Shown here: one piece after another, positions 22,715 to 31,012 of the stretch
How positions within the stretch are numbered: position 1 is the first letter of the stretch
Layout: every line of letters starts with the position of its first letter
Origin: Lactobacillaceae bacterium
GTDB lineage: Bacteria > Bacillota > Bacilli > Lactobacillales > Lactobacillaceae
Direction of reading: 5' to 3'
Length of the DNA stretch: 64,000 bases
NCBI GenBank assembly: GCA_031289015.1
Contig: JAITQG010000072.1
Span: 6,846 to 70,845 of the forward strand
Notes under the pieces: generated by a model
Seen by the model: the letters and a program-made list of their open reading frames with translations, nothing else
What the model was told of the DNA's origin: nothing
The model's database searches: none
Made by a program: the position numbers and the translations under genes

Positions 22715-22729
22715 TCAATAATTTTTATT

Positions 22730-22813
22730 AAACCATCACGTGATTTTATGACGTGGTGTTTTTTTTGGCATCAAACTACAAAAAAGTTCACGCCCAAATG
22801 AGCGTGAACTTTT
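22730..22813. terminator. Two back-to-back terminators (zwf on +; adhesin-rhomboid unit on -)
   Basis: ATCACGT..ACGTGGT plus T8 (22730-22766); AAAAGTTCACGC..GCGTGAACTTTT (22781-22813). Confidence 0.75.
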
Positions 22814-22821
22814 GAATTCAA

Positions 22822-23490
22822 TTAATCTATAACTTGCACTGCCGCCACACTGGGTTCAATCCCAGTATGATTAGCAATCCGTTTTTGCAAATCCACATGT
22901 AAGCCGGCCACAAAGCAACCAAATGCATAACCCGTGGCCATCCCAGTGATGTGGCCAACTGCTGAAATACTCGAATCTTTAAATGAAGCATACAACAGGC
23001 CACCAGCGAGTAGCAACACTAGGCCAATCGGGATCAGTAACCAAATTTTCTTATAGATGAGTACTTCCATCGACATGATGGGCAAGACGAGGGTCAGCAT
23101 GCCATATTCAATCCCTGACGCCCCAATCGTGAGGGTAGTCGTGGTTTCGTGCACGGCTACCCCAACTACTAACATACAAACTAAAATAAAAAGTAAGTAC
23201 ATCGAGCGTGCCAAGAAGGATTCAATAACCCCGCCAACAATCAATATCTCACATGAATTAACCACGAGATGTTGAAAGCTAGCATGCTCAAAGGTCTTGA
23301 ACATCGAGGCGACAATCAAATCCGGATCAGCACCTAAAGTTTGATGATTGAATTGCATAATTTGAGCAGCAGATGGCCCTGAAAACGGGTTAACTCCTGA
23401 TGTATGTGACATCCAAAAATATACCACGATATTAAACACAATATAGAGAATGGTAATAATTGGTAAATGTTTCATTTTCGAATCAAACAT
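22822..23490 (-). CDS. Rhomboid-family intramembrane serine protease
   Basis: About 6 TM; HLVVN (L1/TM2 HxxxN), catalytic GASG Ser, catalytic GHITG His; GAGGA RBS. Confidence 0.85.
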   Translation of the reverse strand: MFDSKMKHLPIITILYIVFNIVVYFWMSHTSGVNPFSGPSAAQIMQFNHQTLGADPDLIVASMFKTFEHASFQHLVVNSCEILIVGGVIESFLARSMYLLFILVCMLVVGVAVHETTTTLTIGASGIEYGMLTLVLPIMSMEVLIYKKIWLLIPIGLVLLLAGGLLYASFKDSSISAVGHITGMATGYAFGCFVAGLHVDLQKRIANHTGIEPSVAAVQVID

Positions 23491-23560
23491 GCTAAATCCT
23501 CATTCAATTAATAGTTTGCTACCTAGCCTCACATTGATTGAGCAATTTTATGGAATTTAA

Positions 23561-26500
23561 CTACTTAGCTTCTTCCTCTTGCTTGCGACGCTTCTTTACA
23601 AAGAATAATCCACCAGTGGCAATTCCCAGTGTAGCCAAGACACCCCAGAGCCAACCCGAATCTTGCTCAACGACCTTTTCAGGTTCATCAGTCTCGCTTG
23701 CATCTTGGGCATTGTCGTTAATCTTGACGTCCTTACCATCTGCATTAGCATCCTTGATATCCTTGGCGTCTTTTGCATCAGTGGCTGCTGAATTGTCAGT
23801 TGCTGCCGTGTCACCAGCTGCCGGCGTATTGCCATCATTTACCGGTGTCGTCACCCCAGTCCCATCCCCACCATTATCTGGTGTTGGCGTTGGCGTTGGT
23901 GTTGGTGTTGGTGTTGGCGTTGGCGTTGGCGTTGGTGTTGGTGTTGGCGTTGGCGTTGGTACCGCATCCTTTGCGTAAGTCACAACTTCAACACTGTTGC
24001 CATCCGTAACCTTGATAGTGTAACCAGCCAGCTTAGTCTTGTTGGGTGTGTACCCAGCAATGGTTGGTACAGCGCTAGCAGGTGTAGTCAATTCAGTTTG
24101 TGCCCAGGCAACACTTTGTGCACCCGTCACATCATCAGTCTGGACAGTTCCATTAAAGGTAACTGTTGCGACTTGATCATCAGCAGCTTCATGGCCATTT
24201 TCAAGCAAGAAGCGCACCGTGTGTGAAATTTGCTTTGAGATAGCCTTAGTTGAGATGTGATGCTTCAAATGAACATTGATGTCTTGATTGCTTGTAAATA
24301 CACCTTGATCATAACCAGCATCCCCAGCCACAAATTCATAGCCACTTGCTAACAACTTGTCCAAAGTAATTGAATTAGTTGTATACTTGTCGCCCGTATT
24401 ACCGATCACAACCGCCTTTGAAACTTCACGGTTGCCATTGTCGGCATCTAGGTAATGAATGGTGTTAGTCACCGTAGCCACTGGCGTATTTTCAGCTTGG
24501 TAAGTCACAAAGACGTCTTCGTCCGCATCAGTACCTTGCACCACACGGGTTGCAACAGTCTTCAACGTTGGCACAAAGCCTGCAATGCTTGGTGATTCAA
24601 CAGCCTCAAGCGTTTGTTCGCCAGTTAACCATTCAGCAGTGATGGTTTGTGTGACCTTATCAAACACCTTGTTACCTTGGAAGGTTACGGCTTGCACCTT
24701 GTCTTCAGCAACCTTGGTTCCATTGGTATTTTGATAATGAATTGTCCGCTTGATGGTCTTTGTAGTAGCTTCCTTAGTTACAGCATGCTTCAAGTAAACG
24801 TTGATATCCTTGCTAGTCTCAAAGATTCCAGCTTGGGCACCGGCATCCTCAGCTACCAATTCATAACCTTGTGCCAATAAGGCATTCAAGTTTGCTGTAT
24901 TAGTCGTATAGGCTTCACCCTTACCACCAGCTTCAATTACATTGCCGACTTCAGCATTATGGTTATCCGTGTCGATGTAGTGCACGTTTAATTGCACGAC
25001 TTCATCGGTACTATAATACTTAACCGTCACTTCACTGTTCTTTTGATGTCCAGTAACCGTTCTTGCAGCCACGGTTGCCTTGTTAACCAAATATCCGTCA
25101 ATGGTTGGTGAAGCAACTTCAGCCAACTCTTTTTCTTCTTGATCCCAATCAACCTTGTAAAGTCCAGTTACCTTATCAATGTGCTTCACGCCATTAAATT
25201 CAGCAGCTTGCACGACATCATCAGCGGCAGTTTGCCCATTAGAGAATTGATAATGAATCGTCCGGGTCGTTGTGTGTTCAAAATTCTCATCCACAATCGC
25301 ATGCTTCAAATACACGTGCACGTCTTTGTTTTCAGTAAAGCGACCATCTGCTGAATTTTCATCGGCAGCAAAGACCACATAGCCTTTGTCCTTCAAATCA
25401 TCAAGTGTGCTTGAATCAATCGTATAGTCTGTACCTACTAAGCCCTTGGCAGTTTGGAGACCAACTTCAGCATTGCCGGCATCAGCGTCGATGTAATGCA
25501 CCTTAACCCCGATAATATCGGCATCGCTATGGTATGTCACGTTAACATCAGAGTCCTTAGTATTTGGGGTAACATACAATTCATGGACACTCCCCTTATC
25601 TGGGGTGAAATCATTGACGTATGGTGATACCACTTCTGGCAAAGTTGCGTTTTTAGTATCCCAACTGTACTTTGACAGATTGGTTACTAAATCAGTGTCC
25701 TTTGAACCAGTAAAGGTTTCAGATTGGATGACATCATCAGCAGCCGTACCACCAGTTGCAAAGTTATAATGGATTGTCCGGGACACCGTCCGGGTTACAT
25801 CAGACTTGTCATGCTTGTGTGACAAATGTACATACAGATCCTTATCGCCAGTATAAATACCAGCATCAAAGCCTTCATCACCATCGACAAATTCATAACC
25901 AGTTGCTAACAACCCATTCAAAGTTGCATCGTCAGTTTGGTATTTGTCACCAATATTACCTGCATTGGTGGTCTTGCCAACTTCAGCATTGTTGTCATCA
26001 GCATCCAAGTAGTGCACTTGGATGGTTGTTGGTGCCAAATCAGCTTCATAGACAACCTTTGTATCGATGTCAGCATCCGTGGCTACAACTTGGGCCTTGT
26101 CAATGACTGCCTTGCTTGCGGTATAGCCCTTAATCGTTGGTGTTTCAATGGCATCAAACACTTGTGGTGTCATATCCCAATCAATACTTTGATGCTTAGT
26201 CACCAAATCAGTATCTTTTTGCCCTTCAAACTTCAAGCTTTGCACTTGCTTATCCGCAGCTTCTTCACCATTGGCAAATTGATAATGGATCGTCCGCGTT
26301 ACATAACGGATGGCTTGTTCATCGGTGTGCTTATGCCGCAAATGGACATACAAATTAGCTGGTCCATCAGCTGTGAAGAGGCCTTGATCATAATTATCAT
26401 CAGCGCTAACAAATTCGTAACCAGCCGCCAACAACTTTGGCAAAGCCTTGTCATTCAAACCAGTTTCATAACGATCACCGAGGTTACCATTGTTAACTTC

Positions 26501-29500
26501 AGCGGTGATTTCTTTGTTATCAGCGTCCAAATCCAAATAATGCACGGTGTTGGTAGCAGAAGTGTGCTTATAATAAATTGTCAATTCTGTATCATCATCA
26601 AATGGTGATACAGGCATCGTCACTAAGCCAGCGGTTAAGGCTGTGAAATTCAACACTTCAGGCGCATTAACATTTGTGAACTCTTGTTGTGTTGGATTAT
26701 CCCATTCATTAACAGTTTGGTTAGTCACCTTGTCATAATAACTAGTTCCCGTAAAGGTCACGCTTTGTACGCGATCAGGTGCAGCTGATTCCTCAGGTTT
26801 GTCTTCAAAGCGGAAATGCACAATCCGCGATACCGTCTTAGTCAATGGCGTTGCTTCAATTCCGTGGGCCAAAGTCACATAATAGTCCTTACTTGCTTGA
26901 CTATAAGTTCCAATCACAGCACCCTCATCACTATGTTCAACCACATAACCATGGGCCAACAAGTTCTTTAACGTCATCGTGTCAGTAGTATAGTTTTCAC
27001 CCACACGACCATGATTAGTCACTGCAGCCAATTCCTTGCCATCTTGACTACCATCCAAATAATGAATCGTCGTGGTGGCTGCACTAGCTGACTTAGTATA
27101 CGTCACGGTGATGGTTTGATCTTGATCAGCACCCGTTACCGTAGAAGCTCCAACCTTAGCTTCACTTGCCGTGTATTGGTTGATTTCCGGTGATACAACT
27201 TCACCAAATTCTTTAGTAATGGTGTCCCAATCAAAAGTTTCAGCCTGAGTCACTTGGTCGATATGCTTAGTCCCATTAAAGTCCACCGTTTGTTCAACAG
27301 CAGGATTTGCCGTGGCACCATTTGCATACTTATATTGAATCGTCCGCTTAACATCCTTAGTCACTGCCTCGTCAACAACGGCATGCTTAACATACACGTA
27401 GTAATCAGTATCTTGAGCAAAGGTTTCCGTCACGGTGATTGGCCCAGATTCATGCACATAGCCCATTGGCTTGAGCAAAGTATCCAACACGTTCATCGCC
27501 GTGTAATCCTTTGATGGCTCTCCAGTTGGCATGACACTAACGGCACGCGTGATTTCTTCGTTGTTGTTATCAGCATCGATGAAGTGATATGTCAGGCGAG
27601 CTTGATCCTTATTTACTTCATCTTTTCTAAACTTAATCGTGCGATCAACGCCACCACCGTTAACTGAGATGGTTTGGCTTGGTACGGTTGTAGCATCAGC
27701 TGTGTAACCCTTAATCGTTGGTACCGTAATTTCAGGGAATGTCTTGGTTCCATCTTCATACACTGTGGTGCTCTTTTGCGTTACCAAATCAGTCGTCTTC
27801 ACCCCAGCAAATGTCAACGTTTGAACCGTTGGCTTCACCACAAACGTCGCCAAATCATCTGAATAACGATATTCAATCTTACGTGTCTTAGTTGCTGTAA
27901 CGTCTTCGCTGAGCTTTTTGTGACCCAAATGCACGTACACATCTTGATCGTTATCAGTAAAGGTACCTTGGTTAGCTTCTTTATCACCATCAAGGAATTC
28001 ATACCCAGCAGCATACAATGCTTCGAGTTGCTTAGGATCAGTTACGTAATCATCCCCATCTTGCCCAGCATTGATTACCAGTCCAACTTCAGCATTATCA
28101 GCTTCTGTGTCGATATAATGCACGTTGACATTCATAGCGGGATGATACGTCACCGTTACTTCAGTATCGAGTGGGCCATTATGATCAGCAAAGGCCGTAG
28201 CAACCCTGGCTTGATCGGGTGCAAAGTGGGCAATCACCGGTGAATCCACCGCATCAAATTGCACTGTATCCCAGACCGTAGTCGCGTGCCCAGTTACCAA
28301 GTCAGTGGTCTCAGTTCCTGTTAATTCACTACCTTGGATAGAATCATCAGCCGCCTTATCACCATTTTCAAATTGATAGTGAATAAAGCGTTGCGTACCA
28401 AACAAATAGTGGTGTGTAATTTCTGTTTTGTGACCTAAGCGGACATAAATGTCCTTGGTTTGGTCAAATTCACCCTTCAACCAACCATCATCACCTGAAA
28501 TGAATTCATAGTTTTGCTTGATTAAGTCTTGATAGGCCTTTGAATCATCAGTTTGATAACGCGTACCAATTTGGCCATCCAGTGCCAAACGGCCAACTTC
28601 CTTATCAGCATCATCATGATCAAGGTAATGTACCGTCAATTGCGCTGTGCCTTCAGTAGCAGTTGCACGTGTATAGGTCACGTTTTGTTGTACAGTGCCC
28701 ATATTATATTGCACTGGCAAAACAGCACTCGTTGACTTGTCAGCCACGTAACCGGCAATCACTGGTGATTCAATTGCTTCAGTCTGCTTTGGTGTTGTCG
28801 CAAAATCCGTCCCAATTGACTTATTGATCACTTGGTCGATATGATCAACGCCATCAAAAGGAATCCGTGTCAAATGATCTGGAGCTGCCTTGGCACCGTC
28901 AGCATACTTATAATGCACTACTGAGGCCACATAAACCGTTTGTTGACGATCAATAATCTTATGGCGCAACCGGACAGTTACTTCAGAATCTGCCGCAGCG
29001 TTCGTTCCTTGACTATAATCATTAGCCCCAGGTACCAGTTCATAACCTTGAGCATACAAAGCATTCAATTTTGGTTGGTCAATTTGGTATGCCCCAGCTT
29101 CTGGCAAAGTAAAGGTTGCTGCATCAATCAGCGCATTGTTGCGATCAGTATCGATGTAGCGCACTGTTAAGTTGTTGGTAATTGGTGTCCCTTGCCAAAC
29201 ATATGTATGTGTATCCACTAAATTACGATTATCTAAGTGATCCCCAAGTACTTGAGCTCCTGTCAATTCACTACCAGCAGGGGCATGAACATCTGTGCTC
29301 GTCCCAACTTCACGCCACAAATCAGCGTTAACTGTGTGGTGATCAAAGGTATCCCCAACGACTGGTGTATTTAACCCGAAGTTGGCTGGTTCAGTTGGCT
29401 TAAAATTAGCGCCCATTGAAATCTTCCACAGGCTGTCACATCCAGCAACCATTTCTTCAACTGAAGTCCGGTCAGTTGTCAACGTTGGGTTCGTTAACGC

Positions 29501-30751
29501 CAAAGTCTTCAACTCAGTATCGTTAACAAACATCCGATTCAAGTTAGTAGCTTGTGAGAAGTCAACTTCATTCAAATCAATGCTTGTCAACTTAGGCATT
29601 TGCCCAAAGATCGCTTCAAAGTTGGTCGTCTTACTAGTATCTAAGTTATGCAACCCCCTGATTGCAGTGACATTATCCAAACCATAGAACAAGTACTTCG
29701 CGTCTTGATTTAGTGTTGACCCTTTTTCAAACAAGATCGTTTTAATGTCATCGCGGTGCGCGGCCCATGGTGAAACGGCAGATGTATTGTTAGCTAATGC
29801 CCCACTACGAAGAATTAAAGTACCTTCGTCATTGATGAGCCACTTACTACCAAACGTACCAGCCGCCTTACCAGCTTCACCTTCCCAAACGTAGGTTTCA
29901 GAAACCCCTTGGGCGTTGTGGCGCGTGAGTAGGTTACTTGCCGTCGTGCGACTACCAATTGGCACATAATCATTTAAATTACCGCCTAATTCACGCCAGT
30001 TTTCTGAAATTGCCACGCGTTGCCCATTGTCATAGCTCATGCCTTCCAATGGTGCTGAACGGAAAGCACTGTTCGCCCCGATTTTGCAATCAGCGCCTAA
30101 CGTAATTTTCCACAAATTATCAACTTGGGTAAACAAACCACTAACCGTAACATTTGAATCAATCTTCCAATTATCCAAATTTAACTTTTCAAGGCCATAA
30201 CACTTGCTAAACATTGAACTAATTTCAGTGAAGTTAGAAGTATCCCAGCTAGACAAATCCAAAGTGGTCAATTTAGCATCGTTTTCAAACATGTGATCGG
30301 CCCAAAAACATTTTGAGGCATCAACATACTTAAGCCCTTGAATTTCACGTAATTGTGGCAAATCAGCAAACAAATATCCTGAGTCTGGTGACAAAGCGAC
30401 ATCACCGCTAAAGACGATTTTTTGAATTTGGCTGGCATAGGCTGCAAACGGTGCCGTGCTTGATTGCGCTTCATCGAAAGTCCCTGAACCAAATGTCAAA
30501 ACGCCATCTGCAATTGACCAGTTAACAGTTCCATATTGACCTGTGGCTGATACTCCACCCACCATACTCAAGCCGGCTGCTTGTGTATTGGCAGTTTGTA
30601 GTCCCGGTTGAACTGACTTGTGTAAGAGCGCATCGACATTGGTATCATCGTCGGCTTCTGCCACGTTGTACGCCATACCGGCTGGAACCATAGTCATGGT
30701 CAAAGCAAGTCCACATTTCAATAGTTGTTTGTTAGTTAGTAACTTAGACAT
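23561..30751 (-). CDS. Giant surface protein: signal peptide, two BspA/DUF285-type LRR blocks, 10 MucBP/Muc_B2-type repeats, (PT)n linker, C-terminal TM anchor without LPxTG
   Basis: LRR-like LDLSSWDTSNFTEISSMF; ten ~175-aa units (VHYLD...RTIHY); C-terminus QDSGWLWGVLATLGIATGGLFFVKKRRK; start set to MSKLL after AGGAA. Confidence 0.9.
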   Translation of the reverse strand: MSKLLTNKQLLKCGLALTMTMVPAGMAYNVAEADDDTNVDALLHKSVQPGLQTANTQAAGLSMVGGVSATGQYGTVNWSIADGVLTFGSGTFDEAQSSTAPFAAYASQIQKIVFSGDVALSPDSGYLFADLPQLREIQGLKYVDASKCFWADHMFENDAKLTTLDLSSWDTSNFTEISSMFSKCYGLEKLNLDNWKIDSNVTVSGLFTQVDNLWKITLGADCKIGANSAFRSAPLEGMSYDNGQRVAISENWRELGGNLNDYVPIGSRTTASNLLTRHNAQGVSETYVWEGEAGKAAGTFGSKWLINDEGTLILRSGALANNTSAVSPWAAHRDDIKTILFEKGSTLNQDAKYLFYGLDNVTAIRGLHNLDTSKTTNFEAIFGQMPKLTSIDLNEVDFSQATNLNRMFVNDTELKTLALTNPTLTTDRTSVEEMVAGCDSLWKISMGANFKPTEPANFGLNTPVVGDTFDHHTVNADLWREVGTSTDVHAPAGSELTGAQVLGDHLDNRNLVDTHTYVWQGTPITNNLTVRYIDTDRNNALIDAATFTLPEAGAYQIDQPKLNALYAQGYELVPGANDYSQGTNAAADSEVTVRLRHKIIDRQQTVYVASVVHYKYADGAKAAPDHLTRIPFDGVDHIDQVINKSIGTDFATTPKQTEAIESPVIAGYVADKSTSAVLPVQYNMGTVQQNVTYTRATATEGTAQLTVHYLDHDDADKEVGRLALDGQIGTRYQTDDSKAYQDLIKQNYEFISGDDGWLKGEFDQTKDIYVRLGHKTEITHHYLFGTQRFIHYQFENGDKAADDSIQGSELTGTETTDLVTGHATTVWDTVQFDAVDSPVIAHFAPDQARVATAFADHNGPLDTEVTVTYHPAMNVNVHYIDTEADNAEVGLVINAGQDGDDYVTDPKQLEALYAAGYEFLDGDKEANQGTFTDNDQDVYVHLGHKKLSEDVTATKTRKIEYRYSDDLATFVVKPTVQTLTFAGVKTTDLVTQKSTTVYEDGTKTFPEITVPTIKGYTADATTVPSQTISVNGGGVDRTIKFRKDEVNKDQARLTYHFIDADNNNEEITRAVSVMPTGEPSKDYTAMNVLDTLLKPMGYVHESGPITVTETFAQDTDYYVYVKHAVVDEAVTKDVKRTIQYKYANGATANPAVEQTVDFNGTKHIDQVTQAETFDWDTITKEFGEVVSPEINQYTASEAKVGASTVTGADQDQTITVTYTKSASAATTTIHYLDGSQDGKELAAVTNHGRVGENYTTDTMTLKNLLAHGYVVEHSDEGAVIGTYSQASKDYYVTLAHGIEATPLTKTVSRIVHFRFEDKPEESAAPDRVQSVTFTGTSYYDKVTNQTVNEWDNPTQQEFTNVNAPEVLNFTALTAGLVTMPVSPFDDDTELTIYYKHTSATNTVHYLDLDADNKEITAEVNNGNLGDRYETGLNDKALPKLLAAGYEFVSADDNYDQGLFTADGPANLYVHLRHKHTDEQAIRYVTRTIHYQFANGEEAADKQVQSLKFEGQKDTDLVTKHQSIDWDMTPQVFDAIETPTIKGYTASKAVIDKAQVVATDADIDTKVVYEADLAPTTIQVHYLDADDNNAEVGKTTNAGNIGDKYQTDDATLNGLLATGYEFVDGDEGFDAGIYTGDKDLYVHLSHKHDKSDVTRTVSRTIHYNFATGGTAADDVIQSETFTGSKDTDLVTNLSKYSWDTKNATLPEVVSPYVNDFTPDKGSVHELYVTPNTKDSDVNVTYHSDADIIGVKVHYIDADAGNAEVGLQTAKGLVGTDYTIDSSTLDDLKDKGYVVFAADENSADGRFTENKDVHVYLKHAIVDENFEHTTTRTIHYQFSNGQTAADDVVQAAEFNGVKHIDKVTGLYKVDWDQEEKELAEVASPTIDGYLVNKATVAARTVTGHQKNSEVTVKYYSTDEVVQLNVHYIDTDNHNAEVGNVIEAGGKGEAYTTNTANLNALLAQGYELVAEDAGAQAGIFETSKDINVYLKHAVTKEATTKTIKRTIHYQNTNGTKVAEDKVQAVTFQGNKVFDKVTQTITAEWLTGEQTLEAVESPSIAGFVPTLKTVATRVVQGTDADEDVFVTYQAENTPVATVTNTIHYLDADNGNREVSKAVVIGNTGDKYTTNSITLDKLLASGYEFVAGDAGYDQGVFTSNQDINVHLKHHISTKAISKQISHTVRFLLENGHEAADDQVATVTFNGTVQTDDVTGAQSVAWAQTELTTPASAVPTIAGYTPNKTKLAGYTIKVTDGNSVEVVTYAKDAVPTPTPTPTPTPTPTPTPTPTPTPTPTPDNGGDGTGVTTPVNDGNTPAAGDTAATDNSAATDAKDAKDIKDANADGKDVKINDNAQDASETDEPEKVVEQDSGWLWGVLATLGIATGGLFFVKKRRKQEEEAK
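23883..23960. repeat. Hexanucleotide tandem repeat (GTTGGY)x13 encoding Pro-Thr linker
   Basis: Counted directly: 13 units of GTTGGC/GTTGGT. Confidence 0.95.
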
Positions 30752-30958
30752 AAATAATTTCCTCATAGTTGGTTGTATGGTATTTTTGTAAACTATGATT
30801 AGTATAGAAGCGATAGTGGGGTTTATTTTGGCGTTTGTTCTATGCTAAATAGTTTAAATTATGAATTTATGAGCAGGCTCCGGTTTTGCGTAGCGTTTTG
30901 ACAAAACCACTTACAATTCCGCACCGTTACAGGCTTTATCGCTTACTTTTCCCCATAC

Positions 30959-30992
30959 AAAAATGCAATTCCTGGGATTTTGGAATTGCATT
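30959..30992 (-). terminator. Terminator after addA
   Basis: AATGCAATTCC..GGAATTGCATT with T-run on minus strand. Confidence 0.75.
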
Positions 30993-31012
30993 CTCATAAT
31001 TTTATTTTTAAG

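Follow-up and report, generated by a model that had tools for sequence, protein, structure and literature searches.

A giant adhesin gene without a sortase signal and an adjoining orphan rhomboid protease gene in a Weissella genome

The stretch of DNA analysed here (64,000 nt, called the window, to which all coordinates refer) carries two open reading frames (ORFs) on its minus strand at 22782-30766, which form an adhesin-rhomboid pair: a gene for a giant surface adhesin and, downstream of it, a gene for an orphan rhomboid intramembrane serine protease (Table 1). The host genus is Weissella, the zwf protein being in a 90%-identity cluster with zwf of W. diestrammenae. An earlier reading of the sequence alone, the original prediction, had placed the pair between zwf and addA, and this was borne out by profile matches of the flanking genes zwf (TIGR00871, 518 bits) and addA/addB. 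The locus was compared with 31 Weissella genomes (30 besides the host), 400 genomes of the family, 1.84 billion representative proteins and 185,579 species. Where labels are needed, G000 is the host genome, G001, G005, G006, G012, G022 and the like are other Weissella genomes, and C-numbers are contigs of the host.

The adhesin consists of a signal peptide, two DUF285/PARCEL (BspA-like leucine-rich repeat) modules, about ten Muc_B2/MucBP repeat units, a PT linker and a transmembrane (TM) tail, in this order. Pfam matches were found for two N-terminal DUF285 stretches (52 bits), followed by 10 Muc_B2 (599 bits), 8 MucBP_2 (159 bits) and 6 MucBP (106 bits) stretches, which makes the protein a member of the MucBP/DUF285 adhesins, and in NCBIfam its N-terminal head was matched as a PARCEL repeat surface protein with 34.5 bits. 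There are two possible start codons, and the second ATG has the better Shine-Dalgarno sequence (AGGAA, 8 nt upstream); the protein length in the original prediction fits this start and not the first one. No true orthologs of the adhesin were found, the best matches being 26-38% identical and running through the repeats.

The C-terminus of the adhesin reads ...EPEKVVEQDSGWLWGVLATLGIATGGLFFVKKRRKQEEEAK, directly before the stop codon. The linker and the acidic spacer that follows it presumably span the cell wall, and they lead to a short juxtamembrane motif, a predicted TM helix and a basic stop-transfer sequence. The Gly-rich helix and the basic cluster had been recognised earlier, but the protein does not end with the cluster, as was then thought, because six further acidic residues follow. 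The adhesin has no sortase signal. The absence of LPxTG or a variant of it before the TM helix had been claimed at the outset, and neither the last 160 residues nor the two alternative frames contain an LPXTG-like motif, so that no LPXTG is hidden by a frameshift. Pfam Gram_pos_anchor (PF00746), a scan that had been proposed together with the claim, gave no match either, which fits the absent sortase signal. The NCBIfam LPXTG_anchor profile (TIGR01167) was matched with 18.1 bits at its positions 8-33 of 34 only, which are the TM and basic part, while a control LPETG tail from the same genome reached 30.5 bits from profile position 2. The MucBP giants of other Lactobacillaceae genera end in LPQTG or LPSTG, the homologs in Limosilactobacillus and Lactobacillus having LPQTG.

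The product of the downstream gene is a member of the Pfam family Rhomboid (PF01694, 55 bits against a cut-off of 22.6), in which the signatures HxxxN, GxSG and HxxGxxxG are all present. When the protein was aligned with 39 other rhomboids, the columns of H74, N78, G123, S125, H180 and G183 were invariant and that of G187 was nearly so; the serine of GASG (Ser125) and the histidine of GHITG (His180) are therefore intact, as first described. The AlphaFold2 model (pLDDT 87, pTM 0.85) found E. coli GlpG as its best PDB match in Foldseek, with target-normalised TM-scores of 0.74-0.77 and a probability of 1.00. The L1 WR motif, which is common among rhomboids and not catalytic, is absent, as the protein has ASMFKTFEH where the housekeeping rhomboid has QWWRLITAGFLH. 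Judged by its residues and its modelled fold, the rhomboid looks catalytically competent.

The spacer between the two genes has no terminator-like or promoter-like match on the minus strand and no significant fold (z -0.36), the two genes are in different frames, and a terminator stands after the rhomboid gene. The close spacing on one strand with no hairpin in between, as well as the terminator, had been noticed in the original prediction, and both hold. The layout, with both genes on the same strand, a 70-nt gap, a Shine-Dalgarno sequence and a single terminator, is consistent with one transcript. Because the hairpin of zwf is separate from that of the rhomboid gene, the inserted unit brought or evolved its own terminator; in the same way, because addA ends in its own hairpin, the adhesin gene has its own upstream region of about 200 nt.

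Table 1. Features of the adhesin-rhomboid locus, with positions in the window and residues of the encoded proteins.
Feature	Position	Strand	Remark
Genome-specific insertion between zwf and addA, approximate	22770..31000	.	about 8.3 kb
zwf terminator hairpin CCATCACGT..ACGTGGTG + T8	~22725-22768	+	rhomboid terminator 15 nt further on
Intrinsic terminator hairpin, 3' of rhomboid gene	22782..22813	-	14-15 bp + T-run
Orphan rhomboid intramembrane serine protease gene	22822..23490	-	222 amino acids (aa), six TM helices
Rhomboid G-H180-ITGMATG	22930-22956	-	TM6; to G187
Rhomboid G-A-S125-G	23113-23124	-	TM4; G123
Rhomboid H74-x3-N78	23257-23271	-	TM2, HLVVN
Intergenic spacer	23491..23560	-	70 nt; GAGGA 7 nt before rhomboid ATG
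Giant surface adhesin gene	23561..30766	-	2401 aa from first ATG (30766); 2396 aa from the likelier ATG (30751)
Adhesin cytoplasmic stop-transfer KKRRK, then acidic end QEEEAK	23564..23596	-	
Adhesin predicted Gly-rich TM helix GWLWGVLATLGIATGGLFFV, residues 2371-2390	23597..23656	-	contains the Gly invariant in five tails (W-L-W-G↓V-L)
Adhesin juxtamembrane motif K-V-V-E-Q-D-S, residues 2364-2370	23657..23677	-	the adhesin's version of the genome-specific AQKQV[DE]QD[SA]
Adhesin (PT)13 linker, residues 2270-2296	23879..23959	-	then a low-complexity acidic spacer of about 65 residues
Terminator-like hairpin AATGCAATTCC/GGAATTGCATT + TTTTT, after addA	30962..30992	-	

In the four closest Weissella genomes (zwf 85-89% identical, with G012 as the closest relative), zwf and addA are convergent direct neighbours that lie about 50-130 bp apart. 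As the zwf-addA junction is empty in all four, the adhesin and rhomboid genes are one accessory insertion. Its base composition (GC content) does not deviate from that of the genome, and its flanks showed no repeats. The original prediction had raised the point that the rhomboid could be a universally conserved neighbour of zwf; this is not so, the pair being a genome-specific insertion. A Logan contig of 9508 bp from SRR14710897 (L076) carries the identical rhomboid, zwf and glpK arrangement, and comes either from the source strain's data or from a sample containing the strain.

The tail of the adhesin is not the only one of its kind in the host. By a scan of all ORFs of the genome, five tails and two looser cases were found, and the five follow the pattern AQKQV[DE]QD[SA]-x2-PW, then a TM helix with an invariant Gly in its outer part, then RRKK. 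Apart from the window adhesin, which has the fifth tail, they belong to an 867-aa Gly-rich protein on C2 (..AADKQVDQDSFNPMILVG..RNKRKV), a protein on C13 that is cut by the contig end (..AQQQLDQDAMSPWLISG..RRRKDEEEEEA), and two tandem DUF285 and MucBP proteins of 906 and 883 aa on C17 (..AAQKQVDQDSFLPWVAG..RRKKDQTEDNQ and ..SAQKQVDQDSIAPWVVG..RRKKKQTEEE). The genes on C13 and C17 are at C13:10324-11076, C17:8341-10989 and C17:10999-13716. All five proteins have the tripartite C-terminal architecture of motif, TM helix and basic cluster, and in their alignment a Q, a D and a Gly near the start of the helix are invariant. The codons differ synonymously and the helix sequences differ, while the motif is kept. 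The tails are therefore not recent copies, and the motif, which persists despite synonymous codon changes and diverging TM residues, is under purifying selection. A paralogous tail family with a conserved motif is the pattern that would be expected of a sorting signal.

The tail family was found in the host genome only. A profile of the five tails gave 77-105 bits on its own members and at most 33 bits elsewhere (30 other Weissella and 400 family genomes). The exact coding pattern of QVDQDSxxPW had two chance-level matches only among the 185,579 species, in Pseudoduganella and Cyanobium, and a tail search of a 5.8-billion-protein index returned nothing. None of the catalogued sorting domains reached its cut-off with these tails. 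The GVDTG sorting domain (NF058571) was considered as a relative and rejected, since it was matched with 16-17 bits, in the TM part only, against a cut-off of 29; this domain had no above-cut-off match in the 31 Weissella genomes, and no literature on it was found.

The C2 protein (C2:19262-21862, minus strand) is secreted and has a long Gly-rich N-terminal region with GGxGG repeats, two repeated modules of about 130 aa, a Pro/Thr linker and the QVDQDS tail, so that it is related to the MucBP adhesins by its tail only. The two looser cases, on C47 and C41, have AAQKQEQQDSTWPW or AAQMQEDQDAVWPW and a helix, followed by a cytoplasmic domain of about 90 aa. These proteins (C47:3717-5036, plus strand; C41:6668-7429, minus strand) share the motif AAQ.Q..QD..WPW, the TM helix and a conserved cytoplasmic domain, ...DDNxV.HY....TPLGYFDKYF...FE.HKH.... 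Similar proteins are encoded in G012 (L070 978-1763, L071 2486-5137 and 11299-13914, L073 2448-5381), and genes of this type sit in clusters of small secreted proteins, in WxL/Csc-like neighbourhoods.

The rhomboid is as isolated as the tails. An exhaustive HMMER search of the 1.84 billion representatives found one match below 1e-10, a paralog in the same genome (C27:22977-23597, 219 aa, 45% identity), with all other matches at E 1e-7 or worse. A word-indexed search of 5.8 billion clusters found the rhomboid itself alone, and no relatives were found in 24 congeneric species, 400 family species or the genome contig collection. Among the sets searched, this rhomboid clade is confined to the host genome. 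The sole extra rhomboid among the family genomes that is somewhat closer, in G226, is 27% identical and is located among metabolic genes with no adhesin neighbour. Because the signature residues are kept in both paralogous rhomboids at 45% identity, both are under selection as enzymes. A third, GluP-like housekeeping rhomboid adjoins glucokinase in the host genome, is 23% identical to the window rhomboid and is present in 27 of the 31 Weissella genomes, and with this rhomboid present the two extra ones are surplus to general function.

A second insertion specific to the genome, 4.8 kb long, contains the paralog; it lies between the genes for RNase Y and glycerate kinase, which are adjacent in G012 and G019. 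This region (C27:17000-23600; L009 5423-10137) encodes an RpiR-type regulator, a secreted class-3-lipase-like protein of 521 aa, a secreted protein of 282 aa without a family, and the paralog. The paralog was considered as part of a second adhesin-rhomboid pair, which was ruled out, as none of these neighbours is TM-tailed. A type II Cas9 gene with REC, RuvC, HNH and PI domains is located about 6 kb downstream of the paralog (C27:29695-33400; L009 16196-19900), and its ORF exceeds the fetched stretch.

In the reading that we favour, the locus would be an accessory two-gene operon of a Weissella species in which the rhomboid is co-transcribed with the adhesin. The adhesin would be exported by its signal peptide and remain attached to the cell surface as a type I membrane protein, with its PT-rich stalk crossing the wall and the TM helix, followed by the KKRRK stop-transfer, keeping it in the membrane. 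The rhomboid, with an active site expected to face the outer leaflet, and probably its paralog too, would then cut the helix close to the outer face of the membrane, for instance at W-x-x-G↓x-L, where the invariant Gly (W-L-W-G↓V-L in the adhesin) is the candidate P1 site. Such cleavage could free the adhesin and perhaps, by action in trans, other motif-bearing proteins for shedding or turnover; if cleavage occurs, release is more likely than re-anchoring.

The link between enzyme and tail is suggested by the operon-like spacing, the joint insertion and the fact that the upstream gene encodes an N-out single-pass TM protein. To our knowledge, N-out single-pass TM helices are the only kind of substrate known for rhomboids. 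Furthermore, the one genome with the special tail family is also the one with two extra, divergent and intact rhomboids. Gene order and this one genome make cleavage of the adhesin tail by the window rhomboid plausible, although it is unproven and we would put it at somewhat less than an even chance. The wider proposal, that AQKQV[DE]QDS-xxPW with the TM helix and RRKK could be a species-specific sorting or shedding signal read by two dedicated, fast-evolving orphan rhomboids, with many targets for the two enzymes, seems rather unlikely to us.

Several observations weigh against cleavage by a dedicated rhomboid, some of them from TM-tailed relatives. G012 encodes many DUF285 proteins, of which those of 807 and 891 aa are homologous over their full length to the two C17 proteins (31-33% identity) and end in DKDVEAADTQ..WWP, a helix and RRRRKD; a 692-aa protein of the same genome ends in SAADRQVGDSNVFPMW and a helix. 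The tails in G001, G006 and G022 have SAAQKQVTG[ED]NQSW, a helix, RRRK and a 35-aa cytoplasmic tail, and the tail in G005 is SAAQRQIADTNDTTW. None of these genomes (G001, G005, G006, G012 and G022) has an orphan rhomboid, the housekeeping rhomboid being the only one present. Since TM-tailed homologs with related juxtamembrane motifs occur without it, the anchor type is independent of the orphan rhomboid, and the AAxKQV core predates the orphan rhomboids because it is found in relatives lacking them. TM tails without LPXTG are a habit of this Weissella clade.

Within the host genome, the other four tail genes are not beside any rhomboid gene, so that only one of the five to seven tail genes is, and the paralog adjoins two secreted proteins without a TM tail. 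The cleavage preference of rhomboids at P4, P1 and P2' is known for GlpG and AarA, and the conserved QVDQDS residues do not fit it; the W-x-x-G↓x-L site does fit, but in a way that most TM helices can offer. The co-occurrence comes from a single genome (n=1). Adjacency by chance was estimated by us at about 0.01 per genome (2 orphan rhomboids with 2 neighbours each, 5-7 tail genes and about 2,000 genes), a figure that is uncorrected for the many other stretches of DNA read in the same way and subject to a look-elsewhere effect, as the locus was picked for its adjacency. The original claim that the rhomboid is a dedicated processor of the adhesin tail is therefore upheld in part: the missing sortase signal, the intact catalytic residues, the genome-specific insertion, the operon-like layout and the conserved tail motif agree with it, whereas the relatives with TM tails and no rhomboid, and the unlinked position of the other tail genes and the paralog, do not.

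These same observations on the relatives, on the unlinked tail genes and on the paralog's island, which contains no tail protein, favour a simpler explanation. The tail could be a plain membrane anchor of a type common in the Weissella clade, and the rhomboid an unrelated passenger of the island or an enzyme with another role, such as membrane-protein quality control or the cleavage of a different substrate. Quality control is the role of those rhomboids that have been characterised in E. coli/Shigella and B. subtilis (PMC7231995, PMC12615303). The tight operon-like layout of genes that were inserted together speaks against a plain anchor, as does the housekeeping rhomboid that the genome already has, and the two divergent, intact extra rhomboids are kept in the sole genome with the special tail motif. 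We regard this explanation as about as likely as cleavage, at somewhat less than an even chance. Alternatively, QVDQDS could be a real sorting signal that is read by a different enzyme, for instance a membrane protease (of the CPBP family or another) or a sortase of unusual specificity, and the rhomboid could be irrelevant to it. Purifying selection maintains the motif across unrelated proteins, classical substrates are few beside the four sortases of the host (a single protein each with LPETG and LPDTG, besides pilins with FPxTG or LPITG), and non-rhomboid enzymes are known to read other C-terminal signals (bioRxiv 10.1101/2023.06.07.544157; PMC11980579). However, no candidate enzyme adjoins any of the tail genes, the known sortase motifs all contain Pro and Thr, which QVDQDS lacks, and two proteins carry the motif and the TM helix ahead of a cytoplasmic domain of about 90 aa, so the motif is not strictly C-terminal. 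We regard a different enzyme as improbable.

Two further explanations seem to us very remote. In one, the rhomboid would act like a rhombosortase, cutting the tail and joining the adhesin to an acceptor (a lipid or the wall), as has been proposed for GlyGly-CTERM proteins. The tripartite tail would suit this, and the best NCBIfam match of the rhomboid is indeed the rhombosortase family TIGR03902. The score is however 28.5 bits against a cut-off of 84 (paralog 20.6 bits, housekeeping rhomboid 51 bits), and the window rhomboid is not a rhombosortase; as the housekeeping rhomboid scores higher, the match is generic. The GlyGly-CTERM scan that the original prediction had suggested also came out negative, TIGR03501 being absent from the matches of all five tails, with their QV[DE]QDS motif, at E up to 10, and the host is Gram-positive with no type II secretion system (T2SS) context. 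In the other, the tail would be a decayed LPXTG signal that retains the protein in the membrane and does nothing else. The partial TIGR01167 match in the TM and basic part could be a remnant of such a signal, KQVTGE in the relatives resembles LPxTGE, and MucBP homologs elsewhere have LPQTG. Decay is nevertheless hard to reconcile with at least five host proteins that keep the same non-LPXTG motif under purifying selection, and with a whole clade that uses such tails.

The closest known parallel in bacteria is the GlyGly-CTERM/rhombosortase system, in which lineage-specific tripartite tails have a special rhomboid as their partner, encoded beside its target in dedicated cases (PMC3237569, PMC6219818). 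As with rhombosortase (RrtA/RssP) and its GlyGly-CTERM targets, for example Vibrio cholerae VesB (PMC3237569, PMC6219818), the Weissella genome has paralogous tripartite tails, specialised rhomboids in addition to a housekeeping one, and a protease gene beside one target. It differs in being Gram-positive without a T2SS, in a motif that is acidic and Gln-rich (QVDQDS) and not Gly/Ser-rich, in a rhomboid that scores below the family cut-off and is no closer to the family than the housekeeping rhomboid, and in having two paralogous proteases, one of them beside a target. The proposed release of a type I TM adhesin by intramembrane cleavage near the outer face resembles that by the rhomboids of apicomplexan and other parasites, such as Toxoplasma ROM4/5 with MIC2, Plasmodium ROM4 with EBA-175 and Trichomonas TvROM1 (PMC4684317, PMC12615303). 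Those are eukaryotic systems with unlinked enzyme and substrate genes in which cleavage has been experimentally shown, whereas in Weissella we infer it; the shedding of adhesins by rhomboids has been established in eukaryotic parasites only (PMC4684317; PMC12615303).

Compared with the Lactobacillaceae MucBP adhesins that are anchored by LPXTG and sortase A (TIGR01167, PF00746), the Weissella adhesin has the same MucBP/Muc_B2 repeats, a DUF285 head as in some of them, a TM helix and a basic end. It lacks the pentapeptide, and its tail should remain in the membrane as long as no protease cuts it. Surface proteins with hydrophobic C-terminal tails are known in Gram-positive bacteria, for example ActA of Listeria, which resembles the adhesin in its signal peptide, its extracellular body and its C-terminal TM helix with basic residues, and in lacking a sortase motif. 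Unlike in the ActA type, the Weissella tails share a juxtamembrane motif across unrelated proteins, and one of them is in a putative operon with a rhomboid gene.

The window rhomboid shares its fold, the Ser-His dyad, HxxxN and HxxGxxxG with GlpG, with AarA, which acts on TatA, and with B. subtilis YqgP/GluP, which acts on MgtE (PMC7231995, PMC12615303). Unlike the characterised bacterial rhomboids, it lacks L1 WR, has no extra domains and is outside the conserved gluP-glcK context. Few natural substrates of bacterial rhomboids have been described, namely TatA, MgtE, orphan subunits of respiratory complexes and VesB, and no Gram-positive adhesin is among them (PMC12615303; PMC7231995; PMC6219818). 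In the literature, we found no paper that meaningfully links Weissella and rhomboids.

The locus is real and unusual: its TM-tailed MucBP adhesin and its orphan rhomboid are each of a known kind but occur here in a new form, and the enzyme-substrate hypothesis is testable, if unproven. Should the wider proposal of a signal read by two dedicated rhomboids hold, it would be the first system in which surface proteins of a Gram-positive bacterium are processed by rhomboids, and a bacterial rhomboid would have a natural substrate that is genetically linked to it. A rhomboid in an operon with a type I TM adhesin would be an enzyme-substrate pair ready for testing, with four to six further candidate substrates carrying the conserved motif in the same cell, and it would show that lactic acid bacteria can regulate the display of adhesins by shedding within the membrane and not by sortase anchoring. 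Whether or not the link holds, it is new that the Weissella clade anchors DUF285/MucBP surface proteins by motif-bearing TM tails and not by LPXTG, and that the host genome maintains two orphan rhomboids that are essentially without relatives (none better than E = 1e-7 among the 1.84 billion representatives).

Other tail types were seen elsewhere in the genus. In other Weissella (G022, G001, G005, G413, G013 and G010), the C-termini of large surface proteins consist of a TM helix, RRRK and a cytoplasmic tail of 30-40 aa, which carries a conserved DDxLFxE[VI][DE]K[LM]K[DS]xW (L017 1501-1641, L020 1501-1635, L024, L030/L031/L041, L035/L043). The proteins with RRRK and this cytoplasmic motif seem to form a class of bitopic surface proteins that spans the genus and has a conserved signal on the cytoplasmic side. 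In Weissella G011, two tandem surface proteins (L075 858-4439 and 4494-7001) end in LPNTAVQK and LPNTSISK, respectively, each followed by a TM helix and KKRK, which is an LPNT[AS] variant of the sortase signal.

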